DNA of 64,000 nt from Myxococcota bacterium (GTDB lineage: Bacteria; Myxococcota; JACRCW01). Shown in pieces: positions 44,820 through 56,605 of this stretch (positions are counted from its first letter, which is position 1; the number at the start of each line of letters is the position of its first letter). A program made the translations under genes and the position numbers. The notes below the pieces were generated by a model. That model had not been told where the DNA came from. It did not search any database and saw nothing but the letters and a program-made list of their open reading frames with translations. Location: positions 7,779-71,778 of the forward strand of contig JBFMGU010000006.1 of assembly GCA_040752415.1 (NCBI GenBank). The letters are read 5' to 3'.

Positions 44820-45404
44820 TCACGCCGACGTGCCGCGCGTGCTCCTGGCCCATTGCGGCGCCTGATCACCCACGCGCACCACGATGACGCAGTTGGGCGC
44901 GCCCCCGTGCATGCACTGCCGCTCCACCATGCCCACCGGCTCGTCGTAGTGGCGCGCCAGCGCGGTGATGATGCCCTTGGCCACGCCGCACATCTTCCGC
45001 GCGGAGCCGTAGGTGATGGTGACCTCGTCGGTGCCGCTGCGGTTGCACACCAGCTCCGGCGGCGCCGCCCCCTTGTTCTCGATCTGCACCACGCGATGGA
45101 TGGCCCCCTGCGTGTTCAGCAGGACGTCCAATGTCCGCCACTCCGGCTTGATGAGCCGCTGGTACTTCTTGACGAGGTTGGGACCGATGAACTCACCGAA
45201 CGCCTCCAGCAGCACCGGCACCGGCTTCCCCGTCAGGCGTGACGCCGTGGTCACCAGCGCCAACGCATCCGCGTCGGGATACCGCTCCATGGGCAGGAAC
45301 ATCCTCCCGGACATGCCGGCGGCCTTCAGCAGCTCATCCCATGCTTTCTCGCCCAGGTTCGCGCCCACAAAGGCGCGCAGCTCGGCGAAGATGACGCCAT
45401 GCAT
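44820..45404 (-). CDS. H-NOX (heme nitric oxide/oxygen-binding) domain protein, stand-alone
   Basis: Starting at ATG 45404 gives MHGVIFAELRAFVGANLGEKAWDELLKAAG.... The candidate proximal His is in TQGAIHRVVQ, and the Y-x-S-x-R propionate-binding motif is in ITYGSARKM. ~194 aa, typical H-NOX length. Confidence 0.7.
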   Translation of the reverse strand: MHGVIFAELRAFVGANLGEKAWDELLKAAGMSGRMFLPMERYPDADALALVTTASRLTGKPVPVLLEAFGEFIGPNLVKKYQRLIKPEWRTLDVLLNTQGAIHRVVQIENKGAAPPELVCNRSGTDEVTITYGSARKMCGVAKGIITALARHYDEPVGMVERQCMHGGAPNCVIVVRVGDQAPQWARSTRGTSA

Positions 45405-45482
45405 TGTGTGTCCCTTCAGTTCACGTCGACGTGCGGGAGCGCCAGTCAAACCCGGCACAGCGCGTCCCAACCAGCGTTGGCG

Positions 45483-48287: not shown

Positions 48288-50216
48288 TCACTCCGGGTCG
48301 CACATCCCGTCGCAGGTGGGCTCCACCACGCCATCCGGCTTGAGGAACCGCTTCTTCATCTCGATGGCCGCCGCGAGACGTCGCACCGCCTCGTGCGTCT
48401 CATTCCCTTCCGCGGCCTCGTTGGTGGGCGGGGGCGTCTTGCTCACCGGCACCCCGAAGTACACGTACGCCGACGGCGCCGTCTCCACCGTCTCAAAACC
48501 CCACGGCGTGCGTGCGCTCTGGCTGAGCAGCGGCAACCCCGCCGTCCCGTACACCATGTCGGAGGCCAGGTTGGGGACCTGCGCGTCGTCGGTGCCAATC
48601 TGCGAGAGCACGTAACGCACCGTCGAGCCCGGCAGCGGGTCCTTCACCACGTGCGGCGCATAGCTCACCGGGTCCGCGTAGTCCCACAGGCTCTGGATCA
48701 TCGCCAGGATCACCTGTCGCTCCACGGGCACGCGGTAGCTGTCGTCGAACACCAGCGACATGGCCGGCCAGTTGGCGCTGCGCTGGATCATCATGGACCA
48801 GTTGCCCGCGCCCACCCCCACCACGCCACGCTCGATGTCCGGCGTGAGCGCCAGGAACGTGAGCCCCATGATGCCGCCCAGGCTGTTGCCGTCGTAGTAG
48901 GTGGTTCCCTCGTCGATGAGCCGGCTCCCGTCGGCGCGCTGGAGCTCGGGCGCGTCGCCCAGGATGCCGCGCACGGTGCGCGTGAGCGCAATGGTGTCAA
49001 TCACCGCCTGCTGCAGCCGGGAGGCGGTGCGGTGGAACAGGCTCATGTCCCGCAGCGCGTTGGTGACAATGCCCACGTCCTGCTCGGTGAGGCCGGTCCA
49101 GTTGGTGGCCGCCACCACATAGCCCAGCTCCTCGGCGAGACGACGCACGTGACCGCTCTGGATCTCGTCATAGCCGGAGCCCAGCAGCCCGTGCCCGTAG
49201 ATGAGCAGCGGCACCGGCCCCGGGGCGTTCATGGCCTTGGGCGGCACCACCACGGTGAACTCACGGTCCCATTCCCCCGTCGCCACCGGGGTGCCGGACG
49301 CGTCGCGCGCCAGCGTGGCGGTGAAGCCGCCCTCGTCGGTGAGGAAGAGCGGGGAGCGGAAGGTCCCGTCCACCAGGCGCGCCACGTCCGGGTACGTGTT
49401 CTCCCGGGAGCGTGAGATGGCATACGCAATGCCGCGGTTTCCCAGCGTCGTCAGCGCCTGCTCACGCATGCTGAGCAGCGCGCCGGTGATGGCTTCCTGG
49501 GAGGCGGTGTGCACCTCGAACGCGAGCAGCAGGTCGTCCCGGGTGAGCCCCAGCTGCGTCGCCACCTCCATGGCCTCCACCAGCGACGCCCGACGGGACT
49601 CCAGCCGCGCGCTGGTGGTGGGCAGACCGTCCAGCACCGCCTGGAACCCCGCGCTGCGCGGCACCGCGCTCCCGTCCAGCGCACGCACCCGGTGCGTCAC
49701 CACGACGAGATAACGCGCATTGTTCCGCAGCCGCCGCATGGGCCGGATGATGAGCGTGCGCTCGCCGGGCTCCTCCACGGTCATGTCCAGCTCGGAGAAA
49801 TGCGGCACGCGCTCCCGGCGCTCCACGTCGATCAACACGGTCCCGCTCTCGGCGGTGAGGCTGCGCGCAATGTCATCCTGCGGCGGCAAGGCGGTGTTGG
49901 AGATGGCCACCGGGAAATGCACCATGTACGGCGCCGCGGGCGAGAACCCGTCCTGGTCCAGGGAGGTCACATCCACGGGAATTCCCTCACTGCTCAGCGG
50001 CGCGGCGCCCTGGGGGATGCGCACGCGTCGACCGGTGACGGTGCTGGCGTCGACTTCCAGGTACATGCTGGAGGGGAACGGGTTGAGGCACTCCGGGCCG
50101 TAGCCCAGCGGATTGCACGGCTCCGCCGCCACGTTGACCGCCGGTGGCGTCCCCGACGTGGAAGAGCAGGAAACCAGGAGCAACAGGACCCACAACGGTT
50201 GACGACCTTGACGCAT
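48288..50216 (-). CDS. secreted alpha/beta-hydrolase-fold lipoprotein (lipase/esterase-like)
   Basis: Starting at ATG 50216 gives MRQGRQPLWVLLLLVSCSS, a lipobox. GxSxG is YDGNSLGG, and LLIYGHGLLGS is present. ~640 aa. Confidence 0.75.
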   Translation of the reverse strand: MRQGRQPLWVLLLLVSCSSTSGTPPAVNVAAEPCNPLGYGPECLNPFPSSMYLEVDASTVTGRRVRIPQGAAPLSSEGIPVDVTSLDQDGFSPAAPYMVHFPVAISNTALPPQDDIARSLTAESGTVLIDVERRERVPHFSELDMTVEEPGERTLIIRPMRRLRNNARYLVVVTHRVRALDGSAVPRSAGFQAVLDGLPTTSARLESRRASLVEAMEVATQLGLTRDDLLLAFEVHTASQEAITGALLSMREQALTTLGNRGIAYAISRSRENTYPDVARLVDGTFRSPLFLTDEGGFTATLARDASGTPVATGEWDREFTVVVPPKAMNAPGPVPLLIYGHGLLGSGYDEIQSGHVRRLAEELGYVVAATNWTGLTEQDVGIVTNALRDMSLFHRTASRLQQAVIDTIALTRTVRGILGDAPELQRADGSRLIDEGTTYYDGNSLGGIMGLTFLALTPDIERGVVGVGAGNWSMMIQRSANWPAMSLVFDDSYRVPVERQVILAMIQSLWDYADPVSYAPHVVKDPLPGSTVRYVLSQIGTDDAQVPNLASDMVYGTAGLPLLSQSARTPWGFETVETAPSAYVYFGVPVSKTPPPTNEAAEGNETHEAVRRLAAAIEMKKRFLKPDGVVEPTCDGMCDPE

Positions 50217-50316
50217 GACCGCGACCTCCGACGGGTGCGCAGTCTGCCGCCCGATGATGCATTTGGCCAGTCCGTCGCCATCCGACAAACCGCGGCTGTG
50301 CTAGAGAGATGGGTGA

Positions 50317-51725
50317 TGCGCATCCGGTGGGTGATGGTGACGTTGCTGGGCGTGGCGGCGTGTCTCCCGGTGGTTCCCGAGTCCCCGTGCGAGACCAGCG
50401 ACGATTGCGACGTGGAGCACCATTGCGTGGATGGGAGCTGCGTGCCCCGGGACCAGGGTTCCTTCTCCACGTCGTCGTCAGCGGTCGCGAGCACTTCCTC
50501 CAGCGCCAGCTCCTCGAGCAGCGCTTCCTCTTCCGCGTCCTCCGCCGCCGTCAGCTCCTCGAGCGCGAGCGGAACCGCCAGCACATCCGACGTCACCTCC
50601 TCCAGCAGCGCCACGTCCACGTCGGGTGCCACCTCCTCCACCGGCGGAAGCAGCACGTCGCAGACCTCCTCCACCTCGTCGGGCAGCTCCACCACGTCGG
50701 CGGGAACGTCCTCCCCCAACGCCACCAGCAGCACCACCTCCACCAGCTCGTCCGCCACCAGCGCCGCGTCCACGTCGAGCAACACCACCTCGACGTCATC
50801 GACGGGGAGCACCACGTCCTCCAGCGGCTACCACGCCCCGCCCTTCTTCACCGCCTACAATGACCTGGCGTGGTTCTCCGGCCAGACCACCACCAGGATC
50901 AGCACGCTCACGCGCGGCCAATCCGGGAATCTCGTCGACGCCAACACGGGCGTGGCGCTGGGCGCTTCCCTGTCCATCAGCGCGGGCGGCGCGGGCCCGT
51001 ACGACACCTATGGCGCCATGCCCGCCCCGGGGACGGAGGCGCACAACTTCTTCGCGAGCCACGTGGATGGGGCCGGGCTCATCAGCTTTGACCCCTCCGA
51101 CCTGGTGCTGACCTTCAGCTCGCTCCCCACGACGATGCGCTACGAGCTGGTCTTCCTGTGCAACCGCGACAACGCCACCTACACCGACCGGCTCACCCGC
51201 GTGACGCTTTCCGGGATGACGACACTCATCAACGACAGCTCACCGGGCACGTCCTTCCAGCCGGGCACGGCCTCCACGGTCTTCTCTTGCGGTGCCAACG
51301 CGGAGGGACGGGTGGCGCGCTTCGTGGGTGTGGACCCCGGCTCCGACGGCGAGCTGGTCCTCACCATCTCCGACGGAGGCAGCCCCACGCCGCCCGCGTA
51401 CTACGCCAACGCCGTCATGATCCGCGCCTTCCCGCCCGGCACGCTCTACAACGCGCGCCCCGTGGTCGACGCCGGCGCGGACTTCACCACCTCCATGGGC
51501 GGGCTCACCTTCCTGGCCGGTTCCGCCAGCGACGACGGGTATCCCGCCGCGTTCACCGCGCAATGGACGCCGGTCACCGGTCCGGGCACGGTCTTCTTTG
51601 GCGATCCCACGCAGCTCCAACCCGAGGTGAGCTTCTCCGCGGAGGGCACCTACGTGCTGCGGTTGGATGTCTCCGACGGAGAGCTGGTGGGCACCGACAC
51701 CGTCACCATCTCCGTGACGCCCTGA
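50317..51725 (+). CDS. lipoprotein with an N-terminal Cys-rich module (CETSDDCDVEHHCVDGSCVP), a long Ser/Thr linker and a C-terminal beta-rich domain
   Basis: ATG 50317 gives MRIRWVMVTLLGVAAC, a lipobox. The architecture is shared with 10760..13519 and 57469..59235. Confidence 0.7.
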
Positions 51726-51833: not shown

Positions 51834-53867
51834 GTGTCAGACACCTCGCGGCGTTCCCGCGGGTCCGGTTGGAGCCGCCGCATGGTCACCTTCACCTCGC
51901 GTTACACCCGCTGGCTCCACTCCGTCTCGACCCACGACGTGGCCGCGGTGGGCACCCGGAACGCCCTGCTGGGCGAGATGGCACGCACGCTGGGGGCTCG
52001 GGGCATTCGCGTGCCCGGCGGGTTTGCCATCACCGTGGAGGCGTACCGCAGCTTCCTGCAGGAGAACGGGCTCTCCCGTCGGGTGACCCGTGCGCTGGAC
52101 GACCTCTCGCTCGGGAAGGTGACGTTGGAGGAAGCGGGTGCGCACCTCCGTGAGCACTTCCTCCGCGCCGAGTTTCCCGAGGAGCTGGCGCTGGCCATCC
52201 GCACCGCCTACCGCGAGCTGTGCCACCGCCACGCGGTCGACGAGGTGAACGTGGCGGTCCGCGGCAGCGCCACCCTGGAGGAGCATCCCCATCCCGACCC
52301 ATTGCTCAACGTGCGTGGTGAGTCGGCCCTGCTGGAAGCCACGCGCGACTGCTTTGCCGCGCTGTTCAGCAACCGCGCCATTGCGTGGCGTCGGGACGGT
52401 GGCGTGGATCACCTGGGGGTGGCGCTCAGCGTGGGCGTTCAGAAGATGGTGCGCAGTGACATGGCGTGCGCCGGCGTGATGTCCAGCATGGACCACGAGA
52501 CGGGCTTTCCCCACGCCGTGATCATCCAGGCCAGCTGGGGCCTGGGCGCGCTTCACGCCGACGACACCGCCGACCAGTACACCGTCTTCAAGCCGCTGCT
52601 GCGGAGCCGGGACCACCGGCCCATCGTCGAGAAACGGCTGGGCACGCAGCGGCGCAAGCTGGTGTACGGGCACAACGGCACGCCCACCACGTTCGTGGAC
52701 ACCTCCCCGGACGAGCGCGGCTCCTTCATCCTTGACGACGAGGAAATCTTGGAACTGGCGCGCCGCGCCTGCGCGGTGGAGGAGCACTTTGGCCGTCCCG
52801 TGGACCTGGCGTGGGCGCGCGACGGGTTCACCGGGGAGCTCTACGTGGTGCACGCGCAGCCGCGGGCCCCGGCGCGACTCGGGACCGACCCGTTCCCGAC
52901 GGACACGCCCACCACGCGCACGCAGATCATGATCAACCTGGCCAACCCCGCGGCGGCATTCCGCGCATGGAAGCTGCCCAGCCGTGGCATTGGCCTGGCG
53001 CGCCTGGAGCTGATCATCAACCACTGCGTCAAGGTCCATCCCATGGCGCTGGTCCGCTACGACGAGCTGAAGGACGCCGCCCTCCGCGCCCAGGTCGACG
53101 GGCTCACCCGGGGTTATCGTCGGAAGACGGACTACTTCGTGGACTCGCTGGCGCGCGGGCTGGCCAAGCTTGCGTGCGCGCAGCATCCCTACCCGGTGAT
53201 GGCGTGCCTCAGTGATTTCCGCAGCGACGAGCACGCCGGTCTCGTCGGCGGAGCGCTGTTCGAGCCCAGGGAGGTGAACCCCGTGCTCGGGCTGCGCGGC
53301 GCCTCCCGCTACTACAGCGACGCCTACCGGGAAGCGTTTGCGCTGGAGTGCCAGGCCCTCCGCAAGGTGCGCGAGGAGATGGGACTGAGGAACGTGGCGG
53401 TGATGGTCCCGTTCTGTCGCACACTGGAGGAGGCCGACCGGGTGCTGGAGCTGATGTCGCTGCACGGGCTGAAGCGCGGTGTCGACGGGCTGGAGGTGCA
53501 CGTCACGGCGGAGGTCCCGGCCAACGTGATCCTGGCCGAGCAGTTCGCGGAGCGCTTTGACGGCTTCTCCATTGGCAGCAACGACCTCACGCAGCTGGTG
53601 CTGGGCGTGGACCGCGGCAACGGACCGCTGGCCGCGCTGTTCGACGAGCGCAATGACGCCGTCAAGGCGATGATCCGACAGCTCATCCGCGTGGCGCACG
53701 CGCGCGGACGCAAAGTGGGCATCTGCGGCCCGGCTCCCAGCGTTCACCCGGAGTTCGCCCAGTTCCTCGTCGAGGCGGGCATTGACTCCATCTCCCTGCA
53801 CCCGGACTGCGTGCTCGCGGTGCAGGAGCGCGTGGCCCAGGCGGAGCGCGCCCGCTACGGCGCCTGA
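51834..53867 (+). CDS. phosphoenolpyruvate synthase/pyruvate-phosphate dikinase homologue lacking the phosphohistidine (mobile) domain
   Basis: The N-terminal ATP-grasp/PPDK_N-like region (GTRNALLGEMAR...GIRVPGGFAIT...ARDGFTGELYVVHAQPR) joins after an ~18-aa linker directly to the PEP-utilizers C-terminal TIM barrel (TRTQIMINLANP...GIGLARLELIINH...GSNDLTQLVLGVDRGN). No GG.TSHAAI-type His motif is present. An alternative start is at 51882. Confidence 0.85.
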   Translation: MSDTSRRSRGSGWSRRMVTFTSRYTRWLHSVSTHDVAAVGTRNALLGEMARTLGARGIRVPGGFAITVEAYRSFLQENGLSRRVTRALDDLSLGKVTLEEAGAHLREHFLRAEFPEELALAIRTAYRELCHRHAVDEVNVAVRGSATLEEHPHPDPLLNVRGESALLEATRDCFAALFSNRAIAWRRDGGVDHLGVALSVGVQKMVRSDMACAGVMSSMDHETGFPHAVIIQASWGLGALHADDTADQYTVFKPLLRSRDHRPIVEKRLGTQRRKLVYGHNGTPTTFVDTSPDERGSFILDDEEILELARRACAVEEHFGRPVDLAWARDGFTGELYVVHAQPRAPARLGTDPFPTDTPTTRTQIMINLANPAAAFRAWKLPSRGIGLARLELIINHCVKVHPMALVRYDELKDAALRAQVDGLTRGYRRKTDYFVDSLARGLAKLACAQHPYPVMACLSDFRSDEHAGLVGGALFEPREVNPVLGLRGASRYYSDAYREAFALECQALRKVREEMGLRNVAVMVPFCRTLEEADRVLELMSLHGLKRGVDGLEVHVTAEVPANVILAEQFAERFDGFSIGSNDLTQLVLGVDRGNGPLAALFDERNDAVKAMIRQLIRVAHARGRKVGICGPAPSVHPEFAQFLVEAGIDSISLHPDCVLAVQERVAQAERARYGA

Positions 53868-53954
53868 ACCGCGGTGGCGACGGAGCACGCCGTGGGTTGA
53901 CACGTGCCGCCAGATGGGATTGCCATTCGCCGCACGAACGAAGTGAGGCGAAAC

Positions 53955-55145
53955 ATGAAGCGGCGGATGGCGGTGCTGGTGGTGGTGTGGGCGGCGGCGT
54001 GCAGTGCGGGCAGTGGATCGGGGACCAGCGGTGCGTCGTCCTCCAGCGGGTCGGTGGAGTCCTCTTCCACGTCGGAGAGCGGCTCCTCCACGTCGGAGGG
54101 CTCCACCTCGTCGGGTGGGACCGGTTCCTCCAGCAGCACCTCCGGCGGCGAGACCCGGAGCTCCTCCACCAGCAGCGCCACGACGACCTCCACGTCGAGC
54201 GCGACATCATCCACGGGTTCGTCGAGCGCCACGGCCAGCTCGTCCTCCAGCTCGTCGTCCAGCTCCTCCAGCTCCTCCTCGGGAGTGGCCGTGGATGTCT
54301 CCGCCGCCAAGCGCGCCTATCTCACCAGCGCCGCGGCCTACGAGGTGCCGGTGGCCACCAGCGCGCTCGTCGTCGACGCGGTGTACACGGCGAGCATCCT
54401 GGGCGCGCAGGGCCAGGCCATCCTGACCACGGGGACCATCACCCAGGACGGCAACGGGCAGCTCAGCTACAGCAGCTCGCCGTCGGACCGGCTCCGCGTG
54501 GTGTACAGCGCGGGCGCCACCGTCGAGTACTTCATCTCGCAGATCGACGGGAACTTTGCCCTGGACTCCAGCGCCTTCCTCACCGAGGACCACGCGCTGA
54601 ACTTCCGTTACGTGAACAGCGGCGTGGCGGACCTTCAGGTGGTGGCCTCGCGTTCCGGCAGCACCCAGCAGGGAAGCATGAACGGCACGCTGGTCATCGA
54701 GTCGGTGAGCCACACGGTGAGCTGCTCGCGGCAGGGCACGGTCACCAGCCAGGTGGACTCCGGCTTCGCCCGCACCGACAGCAACGAGACGGTGACCGGG
54801 ACCATCACCGCCGCGGACTTCTCCATGACGGTGAATGAGCAGCGCGTGAGCGCCTTCCAGGTCTACAACGGGCAATCCGTCAACGACATCTCCCGGACCA
54901 TCGACGACGCGTGGACCACGCAAGGCATTCCGTACACGCTCTCCGGCGGGCTCATCCAGAAGAGCTTCGTCGACGGCGTGGCGGCGCAGCTGGACTCCTA
55001 CTGGCGCGCCGAGGGTCCCCTCACGCGCGACGGCGTGCCGGTGGGTGGGCTGGGCTGGGGTCAGGACGGCCTGGCCATCCAGGTCTGGCTGGACGTGGGT
55101 GGGCAGCGCACGGTGCTGGAGACCTACAGCGCGCCCCAATCGTGA
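53955..55145 (+). CDS. lipoprotein of unknown function with a Ser/Thr-rich linker
   Basis: ATG 53955 gives MKRRMAVLVVVWAAACSAGSG, a lipobox. A ~100-aa poly-S/T region is followed by a ~270-aa C-terminal domain. Confidence 0.7.
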   Translation: MKRRMAVLVVVWAAACSAGSGSGTSGASSSSGSVESSSTSESGSSTSEGSTSSGGTGSSSSTSGGETRSSSTSSATTTSTSSATSSTGSSSATASSSSSSSSSSSSSSSGVAVDVSAAKRAYLTSAAAYEVPVATSALVVDAVYTASILGAQGQAILTTGTITQDGNGQLSYSSSPSDRLRVVYSAGATVEYFISQIDGNFALDSSAFLTEDHALNFRYVNSGVADLQVVASRSGSTQQGSMNGTLVIESVSHTVSCSRQGTVTSQVDSGFARTDSNETVTGTITAADFSMTVNEQRVSAFQVYNGQSVNDISRTIDDAWTTQGIPYTLSGGLIQKSFVDGVAAQLDSYWRAEGPLTRDGVPVGGLGWGQDGLAIQVWLDVGGQRTVLETYSAPQS

Positions 55146-55305: not shown

Positions 55306-56133
55306 TCAGTTCCCGTCGATGCACTTGCCGAAATACACCGACTCGCTCACCGCCTCGCCTTCCCCGTCGGTGAACTCGCCGTAGAGGCGGGGATTGCCGC
55401 CCACGCCGCCAATGGAGGGCTGCTTGGCGATGTGGATTGGGCCGTCGGTGGGCGTGATGACCATGTCCACCGTGGTCTCATACGGGTCCGTGGTGTGCGT
55501 GCCCTTGGTGTTGTTCTTGAAGCGCATGCGGCCGTTGAGCCCGCTCATGACAATCGCCTCGTCGACGTAGATGTAGGGCCCGGGATGGTTGGTGCAGCCG
55601 CTGAGGTCCACGTACGCGGACAGGTCCGTGGGCAGGTCAAAGTAGAGGTCCTTGGCGCCGAGCCCCTTCTTGCACCGGCCGAGATAGAACTCATCCGTGA
55701 TGGGGTTCCACTTGTCGTCGAAGAGCTGCATGTAGATCAGCGGATTGCCGCCGGCGCCTCCCGCCGCCACCGACTTGGGGACCTGGATGGATTGCCCGTA
55801 GGGAATCATGTTGAGGCCAATGGTGGCCTCGATGTCACCGGACTTGTGCGTGCCCTTCTCGTTGTTCTGGAAGATGAGGTTCATCCCCGCGCCGCCCACG
55901 TACATCTCGCCGCTGATGGTGACGTAGGGACCGCCGGACTGCTCACACCCCGTCACGCTGGGTTTGAGCTTGAGGTTGCCCCGCGTGGTGGTGGTGGCCG
56001 TCATGACGTGATCCGTGTACTGCACCGGCGCAAGCGCGCTCCCGGTCTCCGGGCTCGTCGTCTCCGGGCTGGCGTCGGCATCACATCCCACCGCCAGCGC
56101 TCCCGTGAGCAACAACCCCGCTCCCTTCAACAT
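55306..56133 (-). CDS. lipoprotein with an internal tandem duplication of a ~110-aa domain
   Basis: Starting at ATG 56133 gives MLKGAGLLLTGALAVGC, a lipobox. The repeats YVTISGEMYVGGAGMNLIFQNNEKGTHKSGD... and YIYVDEAIVMSGLNGRMRFKNNTKGTHTTDP... share the pattern F.NN.KGTH and GG.GGNP. Confidence 0.7.
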   Translation of the reverse strand: MLKGAGLLLTGALAVGCDADASPETTSPETGSALAPVQYTDHVMTATTTTRGNLKLKPSVTGCEQSGGPYVTISGEMYVGGAGMNLIFQNNEKGTHKSGDIEATIGLNMIPYGQSIQVPKSVAAGGAGGNPLIYMQLFDDKWNPITDEFYLGRCKKGLGAKDLYFDLPTDLSAYVDLSGCTNHPGPYIYVDEAIVMSGLNGRMRFKNNTKGTHTTDPYETTVDMVITPTDGPIHIAKQPSIGGVGGNPRLYGEFTDGEGEAVSESVYFGKCIDGN

Positions 56134-56605
56134 GCACTCCGCGCGATGGTAACGACCCATGTGCATCGCTCCCTCTGCTTGTCGACGGGAACCCGGCGGA
56201 CAAGCTGGTGTCATGCGTGGCCCGTCACGGCCGCGCGTGGCCCTGCTGCAAATGGCTGTGACGGGTGATTCGGGCCGCTGCGCGCTTCCCCTGCGGGGGA
56301 CAACGCCAGCAGCACGTGCAACGAGCGCCGCGGCTTGAGGGATGCCCTCAGCGCGGACGTCACGGCCAGCTATCCTAACGGTGGGAGGCGCCCAAGCCAG
56401 CGCTCACTCGACGTCGACAAGGCAGTCAACGTGACAACGTGCGCCGAGGCCCCGGGACACCGGGCGCGTGCCCGCGTCGGAAATCTGCAACCCGCTGAAG
56501 ACGGCGTCACGGCGACACCAACCAAGTTGACGACGTGGGAATCAAGCCAGCGTCCCAGGCGCGGTCCGCTGGTGGCACCGCGGGACCTCCTCCAAGCGCG
56601 GAACG

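Follow-up and report, generated by a model that had tools for sequence, protein, structure and literature searches.

A PEP synthase homologue without its swivel-histidine domain in a Myxococcota bacterium: a candidate pseudoenzyme

This study concerns a gene on the forward strand of a 64,000-nucleotide stretch of DNA from a Myxococcota bacterium (contig JBFMGU010000006.1; this whole stretch is hereafter called the window), which encodes a homologue of the phosphoenolpyruvate (PEP) synthase PpsA. The protein lacks the central swivel domain that bears the catalytic histidine, most key residues of its ATP site have been replaced or deleted, its two remaining domains differ clearly in the constraint acting on them, and its reading frame is maintained from end to end. 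We propose, with a probability of about 0.55, that this gene encodes a PpsA-derived pseudoenzyme, a "dead dikinase" which lost its phosphate carrier, whose ATP site decayed, and whose C-terminal TIM barrel was kept for a non-catalytic role. Judging from the residues that remain, such a protein is predicted to be unable to make PEP from pyruvate and ATP.

Domain Architecture and Absence of the Histidine Domain

An earlier examination of the same DNA (hereafter the original prediction) had described an open reading frame (ORF) at 51834-53867 (+), encoding 677 aa from a GTG start, which resembled PEP synthase at both ends and lacked the mobile domain in between. These limits proved to be exact, though the ATG at 51882 is the likelier start (661 aa plus a stop codon): it matches the N-terminus of canonical PpsAs, and is also the start called in the only database record of the protein (P0001, [quoted passage not shown] on an 89-kb contig of this metagenome-assembled genome, or MAG). 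Residue numbers refer to the 661-aa protein unless the longer numbering is named. In the 677-aa numbering, Pfam recognized PPDK_N (PF01326) at residues 37-344 (E 6e-74) and PEP-utilizers_C (PF02896) at residues 359-671 (E 1e-54), and an alignment with the PpsA of Neisseria (PDB 2ols) paired query residues 22-345 with 3-337 and 355-662 with 477-783, about 139 residues being missing. The PEP-utilizers mobile domain (PF00391) found no match in the protein even at E ≤ 1, including around residues 340-360, where the original prediction had allowed that a profile search might yet reveal an intact copy with a conserved histidine. When aligned with a reference set of 119 full-length canonical PpsA homologues, which also provided the central-domain hidden Markov model (HMM) and the invariant columns used below, the query was devoid of 94 + 35 columns.

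Linker helix 1, the PF00391 swivel-His domain and linker helix 2 are replaced by a linker of about 14 residues, PARLGTDPFPTDTP, the sequence that spans the junction being HAQPRAPARLGTDPFPTDTPTTR. The edges of the deletion coincide with domain borders, the mobile domain and both linkers having been excised together. The boundary sequences DGFTGELYVVHAQPR, TRTQIMINLANP and GSNDLTQLVLGVDRGN, listed in the original prediction, were all found in place; its figure of about 18 residues for the linker was too high. A hidden or frameshifted central domain was ruled out. Run over all six frames of the window, the HMM of the central domains of the 119 homologues gave no credible match (best E 6.5), and the swivel-His motif, sought as the regular expression GG(R/x)T(C/S)HAAI, was absent from the protein and from the same six frames. 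The N- and C-terminal matches moreover share one frame, and therefore no frameshift hides the His domain. The absence of this domain, as first noticed by eye, is thus confirmed. The segment PARLGTDPFP, which MAFFT places on the "IPAVVGTG" segment of the His domain, is at most a possible remnant of the latter, as four matches out of ten over about 130 possible positions are not significant.

A perfect 13-nt direct repeat, CACGCCCACCACG, was observed at 52679-52691 and 52904-52916, its copies lying 225 nt apart, with a rough chance expectation of ~0.02 in 600 nt. Both copies encode T-P-T-T, the first in the N-domain and the second within the junction linker (DTPTTR). The repeat may be a trace left when the junction was formed by rearrangement, or it may have arisen by chance in coding DNA rich in GC.

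The AlphaFold2 model of the protein was confident (predicted local distance difference test, pLDDT, 84; predicted template modeling score, pTM, 0.80), the pLDDT of the N-domain lying mostly between 80 and 95. The only weak stretches were the eroded loop 131-140 and the linker 330-337, both with pLDDT below 50, and the active-site loop 466-471. Full-length PpsA (2ols) was the best structural match of the model (TM score 0.76), in a PpsA-like arrangement. PpsA (TIGR01418/NF005057) was the best match in every search, with both flanking domains homologous and in the same order, and the query differs from it by the absence of PF00391 with its linkers and catalytic His, of seven of the ten ATP-site residues and of one barrel Arg. 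It scored above the cut-off of the NF005057 equivalog (714.3 vs. 598) and below that of TIGR01418 (713.5 vs. 739.75). The protein belongs to the PpsA family by descent, yet without PF00391, the catalytic His and the ATP-site residues it should not be filed as a PEP synthase; a score cut-off alone, such as that of NF005057, may mislabel it as PpsA, so that metabolic reconstructions of MAGs would wrongly include gluconeogenic capacity.

Erosion of the ATP Site and Retention of the Barrel Site

Seven of the ten key positions of the ATP site are substituted or deleted (Table 1), all of them being conserved in the canonical sequences examined. The query changes could be mapped onto residues of rifampin phosphotransferase (RPH) through a phmmer alignment of the N-domain to RPH-Lm (E 2e-28). 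At the end of the ATP-grasp domain, the Ala that replaces the Mg-ligand Glu, His324 and Gln326 presumably correspond to Glu323, Gln335 and Arg337 of PPDK. In RPH-Lm, K22A abolished activity, the same position being implicated in PPDK, and T136V gave no phospho-rifampin, while E297A was tolerated (PMC4844700). The Ala found here at the Glu297 equivalent is thus not decisive alone, and the Arg117 equivalent is kept. Two PPDK mutants at relevant positions, K22A and R337A, are present in the PDB as 1jde and 2dik, respectively.

By contrast, nine of the ten positions of the PEP/pyruvate/Mg site are kept in the barrel: the Arg and Glu of GLARxE, the Asp of SDF, the Asn and Arg of NPxLGxRG, the Mg-ligand Glu, the Asn-Asp of SNDLTQ and the Cys of GICG. 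The single loss is the invariant Arg of VRxSDF, here Cys442, a position that by motif similarity we take to be that of PPDK Arg561 and Enzyme I Arg296, involved in binding the phosphate of PEP.

The N-domain is present as a fold and not as an active site. The original prediction, which had counted the nucleotide-binding domain as present, was right as to the former and not as to the latter. Its statement that the three-step dikinase reaction cannot operate in cis is reinforced, since the ATP-grasp site is wrecked in addition to the loss of the carrier domain.

Divergence and Selection

The two domains have clearly not evolved alike. Strictly invariant columns of the reference set were departed from at 36 of 171 positions, namely 26 of 80 in the N-domain and 10 of 91 in the C-domain; when each of the 119 PpsAs was left out in turn, departures averaged 0.18, with a maximum of 3. 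Such an asymmetry between the domains (Fisher P = 0.0007) is not expected of a gene that drifts neutrally as a whole. Mean identity to canonical PpsAs was 51.5% (N) and 63.5% (C), compared with 69% and 75% among the canonical proteins themselves, and the query lies on a long branch in both domains. In the N-domain, the excess substitution probability over a typical PpsA was flat, at 0.23-0.29 in five of the six conservation classes, strictly invariant sites included, and only the most variable class (n = 18) reached a higher value, 0.52. The constraint specific to PpsA has therefore gone from this domain. At conserved sites of the C-domain the excess was 0.11-0.13.

The reading frame itself was preserved. 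The domain deletion and the smaller indels (6, 2 and 1 aa) all keep the frame, and no stop codon interrupts it; in a neutral simulation carried to the observed amino acid divergence, 4.6% (N) and 26% (C) of the runs remained free of stops under a uniform mutation model, figures that a GC-biased spectrum would raise. Replacements at conserved sites were more conservative than random missense changes (P = 0.006 in the N-domain, 0.0006 in the C-domain). GC content at the three codon positions (GC1/2/3) was 0.72/0.46/0.90 and uniform along the gene, with GC3 of 0.86-0.93 and GC2 of 0.37-0.51 per 300-nt window, junction included, the neighboring genes being alike in this respect. Opposite the gene, over its full length, runs an antisense ORF of 688 aa (51837-53903, -); this ORF is devoid of homology, and GC content by codon position favors the + frame. 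Spurious ORFs of such length are typical of a genome with 69% GC, in which ORF length alone is little proof.

These sequence patterns suggest that, most likely, the frame has been held by selection since the domain was lost, the barrel being the constrained part. The gene resembles neither a newly made deletion nor a pseudogene in decay. The original prediction would have been refuted by a recent pseudogene, intact in close relatives; no collection searched held a close relative for this comparison, but the extensive remodeling of both flanks does show the event not to be recent. Lying upstream of the barrel, the N-domain must stay open for the barrel to be synthesized, which would explain an intact frame together with relaxed residues.

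Search for Relatives and Other His-less Homologues

No relative closer than canonical PpsAs was found among 5.8 billion clustered proteins (best non-self match 813 bits, vs. 1498 for self) or 1.84 billion cluster representatives, in 185,579 species genomes and JGI metagenome contigs, or by a search limited to the N-domain and junction. In the 160 loci retrieved, the central domain was present wherever the contig was complete, and metagenome loci that seemed to hold a C-domain only were discarded as matches ended by contig ends or as PpsA genes interrupted by an intein-like insert. In five canonical ppsA genes from metagenomes (L133, L142, L147, L149 and L144; e.g., L147 3659-4833), an insertion of ~1.17 kb lies in the His domain, at profile position ~82-84, after which PpsA homology resumes; an intein seems to have entered at or close to the catalytic GGRTCHAAI motif.

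The same two-domain layout does exist elsewhere. An exhaustive phmmer search of the 1.84 billion cluster representatives yielded at least ten full-length N-C proteins (P0123, P0131, P0132, P0137, P0139, P0147, P0149, P0154, P0168, and P0183), together with partial or more degenerate His-less homologues (P0166, P0179, P0185, and P0230). They have a linker of ~10-35 residues from "...QARPE" to "...T.IM.N" and, where their sources name them at all, are called "pyruvate,water dikinase," "hypothetical protein" or by a kinase-like-domain label. No description of a His-less PpsA or of a PpsA pseudoenzyme was found in the literature searched. Almost all of these clusters are singletons; P0183 and P0137 each appeared in the output of two different assemblers.

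In neighbor-joining trees, the His-less proteins were dispersed over the PpsA tree, mostly beside a three-domain sequence, which indicates that separate lineages have lost the His domain on repeated occasions. The nearest neighbors of the query were canonical PpsAs: in 59% of bootstraps its C-domain grouped with a canonical protein, P0034, against 22% for the His-less P0179. This result, with the scatter of the trees, ruled out a conserved His-less family that would include the query. Motifs common to the query and P0179 ("RSDE," "VHV.AEVP," "VDRG") were likewise set aside as a sign of kinship, neither overall identity nor synteny being in agreement. The His-less homologues thus represent parallel losses and not a clade, and although many have eroded motifs, the pattern of erosion differs in each, from fully intact (P0123) to badly eroded in both domains (P0168, P0183). 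A dead ATP site combined with a near-intact barrel site is unusual among them, P0179 alone being similar, without robust phylogenetic support. One pair could be compared closely: P0168 and P0272, which lack the GGK Lys and the catalytic Cys, have a ratio of non-synonymous to synonymous rates (dN/dS) of 0.15 (84 synonymous vs. 41 non-synonymous differences; N-domain 0.15, C-domain 0.10), and at least one dead His-less PpsA is therefore clearly under purifying selection.

Some individual homologues deserve mention. P0123, from an Aspergillus assembly (GCA_047715645.1, L161 8001-10176), is a bacterial-type PpsA homologue without the His domain and with all 20 key site residues intact; its gene span of 2176 nt is too short for the domain to lie in an intron, and it may reflect horizontal transfer or a gene-model issue. 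P0349, from a Myxococcota MAG (GCA_048614735.1, L173 1031-2533), has a larger internal deletion, which takes out the His domain along with half of the TIM barrel, the first, its remaining motifs being perfectly canonical. Either the deletion occurred very recently or the assembly collapsed at this place; such is the appearance of a fresh deletion or an artefact, and the query does not share it. The case shows that MAG ppsA genes with internal deletions are not rare. Conversely, the three-domain homologue P0129 (804 aa) keeps the His domain and the ATP site, and its barrel is degenerate at seven of the ten key positions (e.g., Asn-Asp to Arg-Arg and Cys to Trp), the mirror image of the pattern seen in the query.

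The surroundings of nine other His-less homologues were also inspected, and no consistent genomic context emerged. Two-component genes lie beside three of the nine and universal stress protein (Usp) genes beside two, a suggestive pattern, neither type being found beside the query. P0137 follows a HisKA-HATPase-REC-Hpt hybrid kinase at a distance of 47 nt, a GAF kinase and a GerE regulator are encoded divergently from P0183, and P0168 adjoins a stand-alone receiver. P0139 and P0154, which are mutually unrelated, are each followed by a Usp gene on the same strand (L170 7106-7633 and L165 12196-13128, respectively).

Proposed Mechanism and Alternative Explanations

From a mechanistic point of view, an ancestral three-domain PEP synthase gene may have lost the swivel domain and both linker helices by one or two in-frame deletions at domain borders. 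Without a phosphate carrier, the ATP-grasp domain would have become purposeless, and its catalytic residues and family constraints may have dissolved since, the domain still being translated and probably still folding. The barrel, by contrast, would have remained under partial purifying selection, with its Mg2+ ligands, pyruvate-binding Arg/Asn and catalytic Cys retained, and the N-domain would be a vestigial passenger kept in frame by its upstream position. Two of the features by which a pseudoenzyme is recognized were observed, clear homology to an active enzyme family with a retained fold, and loss of a module and of residues indispensable to catalysis. The TIM barrel is the dimerization domain of PPDK and Enzyme I. 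We propose that the protein now has a non-catalytic role, in which its barrel would most likely bind pyruvate, PEP or a related alpha-keto acid, and/or pair with another protein, for example the organism's canonical PpsA.

The protein was also compared with other known systems. Its barrel is homologous to that of Enzyme I of the phosphotransferase system (PTS; E about 1e-17 to 1e-18), whose isolated C-terminal PEP-binding domain, EIC, is a stable PEP/pyruvate-binding dimerization module (PDB 2xz7 and 2xz9, with PEP and pyruvate), which is the behavior proposed here. Enzyme I differs in that it has an N-terminal His/HPr-binding domain instead of ATP-grasp and is catalytically active, while the query has no His acceptor. 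In RPH, phenylphosphate synthase, PigC/RedH and HpeI (9goj), the three modules of the superfamily are shuffled, separated or replaced; these systems keep the swivel His somewhere as well as an intact ATP site (PMC4844700), while the query has neither and no partner gene nearby.

Several observations weigh against the pseudoenzyme. The ligand-binding or pairing role is purely inferred. The flat excess of substitutions in the N-domain is the pattern of neutral evolution at the protein level, the stop-free figures depend on the mutation model, and long open frames arise easily at 69% GC, as the antisense ORF illustrates. The gene is known from a single MAG contig, without an independent assembly, and no collection searched contains a close orthologue from which dN/dS of the query itself, or its persistence across species, could be judged. 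The secreted or lipoprotein genes around it (see below) give no functional hint, and a scan for promoter and terminator consensus sequences found none, which is uninformative for such a genome.

Other explanations were considered in the light of the same data. The gene could be a unitary pseudogene in decay, i.e., a functionless ppsA copy with an in-frame deletion, drifting with a frame that stays open because stops are rare at this GC content. We regard this as unlikely. The query is a singleton without an orthologue, as are most other His-less clusters, catalytic residues are lost in both domains, the excess divergence of the N-domain is uniform across conservation classes, and high-GC genomes do keep spurious ORFs; such decay, however, accounts poorly for N and C domains evolving at different rates, for indels that are all multiples of three, for a stop-free frame whose joint probability was ~1% in the uniform-mutation simulation, for significantly conservative replacements with undiminished GC3/GC2 periodicity, and for a barrel site that is nine-tenths intact. 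An assembly artefact, in which the MAG contig would be collapsed or mis-joined within a three-domain gene and the divergent flanks would belong to an unusual and complete PpsA paralogue, seems very improbable. The same protein has no record in other assemblies, internal deletions do occur in MAG PpsA genes (P0349), and the 13-nt repeat touches the junction. Yet the frame continues across the join, which coincides with both domain borders; the deletion is not flanked by the repeat, one copy of which lies in the N-domain; and at least ten other lineages have this architecture, a second assembler having reproduced it in two of them. Moreover, the ATP site has been destroyed independently, and there would be no working dikinase whatever the status of the deletion.

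The protein could also be an active enzyme, whose barrel either phosphorylates from PEP a His supplied in trans (by a stand-alone PF00391 protein, an HPr/Hpt-like protein or canonical PpsA) or performs a new chemistry, such as PEP hydrolysis or a reaction of the enolate; we consider this quite improbable. The Mg ligands, Asn/Asp, second Arg and catalytic Cys are kept, and some His-less homologues adjoin phosphorelay genes, as in the case of P0137. Phenylphosphate synthase is a split dikinase with separate subunits, and a stand-alone ATP-grasp protein, HpeI, exists as well. The query nevertheless fails to resemble such a split dikinase on two counts, a separate gene for the swivel His in the window and a functional nucleotide-binding domain. 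Neither a PF00391-like sequence nor the swivel-His motif occurs in the 64-kb window, no stand-alone PF00391 gene lies beside the nine His-less homologues inspected, the dead ATP-grasp site excludes ATP as a donor, the Arg taken as the PEP-phosphate binder is a Cys, and the query has no signaling neighbor. A further reading, to which we give little credit, would make His-less PpsAs a recurrent PEP/pyruvate-responsive signaling class, whose barrel reports PEP/pyruvate by binding or passes the PEP phosphate to a His on a separate protein. The Hpt of the hybrid kinase upstream of P0137 would then be one acceptor, and central carbon status would be linked to two-component and stress (Usp) pathways. 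Of the three options left by the original prediction, a His domain in trans is not supported, as the window contains no PF00391-like sequence and the N-domain would be unable to charge it from ATP, a different activity is conceivable for the C-terminal barrel only, and the regulatory pseudo-enzyme is the best fit.

If the pseudoenzyme proposed here is real, it offers a clean natural example of the passage from a swivel enzyme to a pseudoenzyme, in which loss of the mobile carrier comes first and dissolution of the orphaned ATP-grasp site follows, while the barrel that binds the ligand is retained. That at least ten unrelated PpsA lineages have undergone the same loss, one of them under clear purifying selection, suggests an unrecognized and repeatedly evolved non-catalytic use of the barrel.

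Genomic Context and Coordinates

Table 1. Position of the gene, its domains and its altered sites in the window.
Feature	Position	Strand	Remarks
Whole gene, His-domain-less PpsA homologue	51882..53867	+	661 aa + stop; alternative upstream GTG 51834 gives 677 aa
N-terminal PPDK_N / ATP-grasp domain, residues 1-329	51882..52868	+	PF01326; fold kept, catalytic site eroded
Phosphate-binding motif, GGKNASLGEM to VGTRNALLGEM	51948..51980	+	Lys22 equivalent is Arg26
Nucleotide-phosphate loop, now GSATLEEHP------HPDPLLNV	52263..52316	+	6-residue in-frame deletion removes SFAGQ; Thr136(RPH) equivalent is Pro
End of ATP-grasp domain	52797..52868	+	PMDIEW to PVDLAW (Mg-ligand Glu to Ala); VQARPET to VHAQPRA (Gln to His, Arg to Gln)
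Junction linker PARLGTDPFPTDTP, residues 330-343	52869..52910	+	in place of ~130-139 residues
C-terminal PEP-utilizers_C TIM barrel, residues 344-657	52911..53852	+	PF02896; 9/10 site positions kept
Cys442 in place of invariant Arg of V-R-x-S-D-F-K-T-N-E-Y (here ACLSDFRSDEH)	53205..53207	+	sole key C-domain site lost

Among the ten neighboring genes scanned, no metabolic, PTS-like, ppsR-like or PF00391 gene was found. The flanking genes on the same strand, at ~50305-51725 (+) and 53904-55145 (+), encode predicted secreted proteins or lipoproteins with long Ser/Thr-rich low-complexity tracts, the upstream one ending in a PKD domain and the downstream one having no Pfam match. Further predicted secreted or lipoprotein genes lie at 48288-50288 (-) and 55306-56214 (-), and three of these four genes have no Pfam match. 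Farther upstream are genes for arginyl-tRNA synthetase (ArgRS), an H-NOX (HNOB) protein, an acyltransferase, an aldo-keto reductase and a YchJ-like protein. Among the neighbors scanned, none was a kinase or cyclase that could partner the H-NOX. This haem-NO-binding protein is encoded as a stand-alone domain with a weak V4R match at 44823-45482 (-), ~6 kb upstream, and its gene adjoins those of an Acyl_transf_3 protein and ArgRS.

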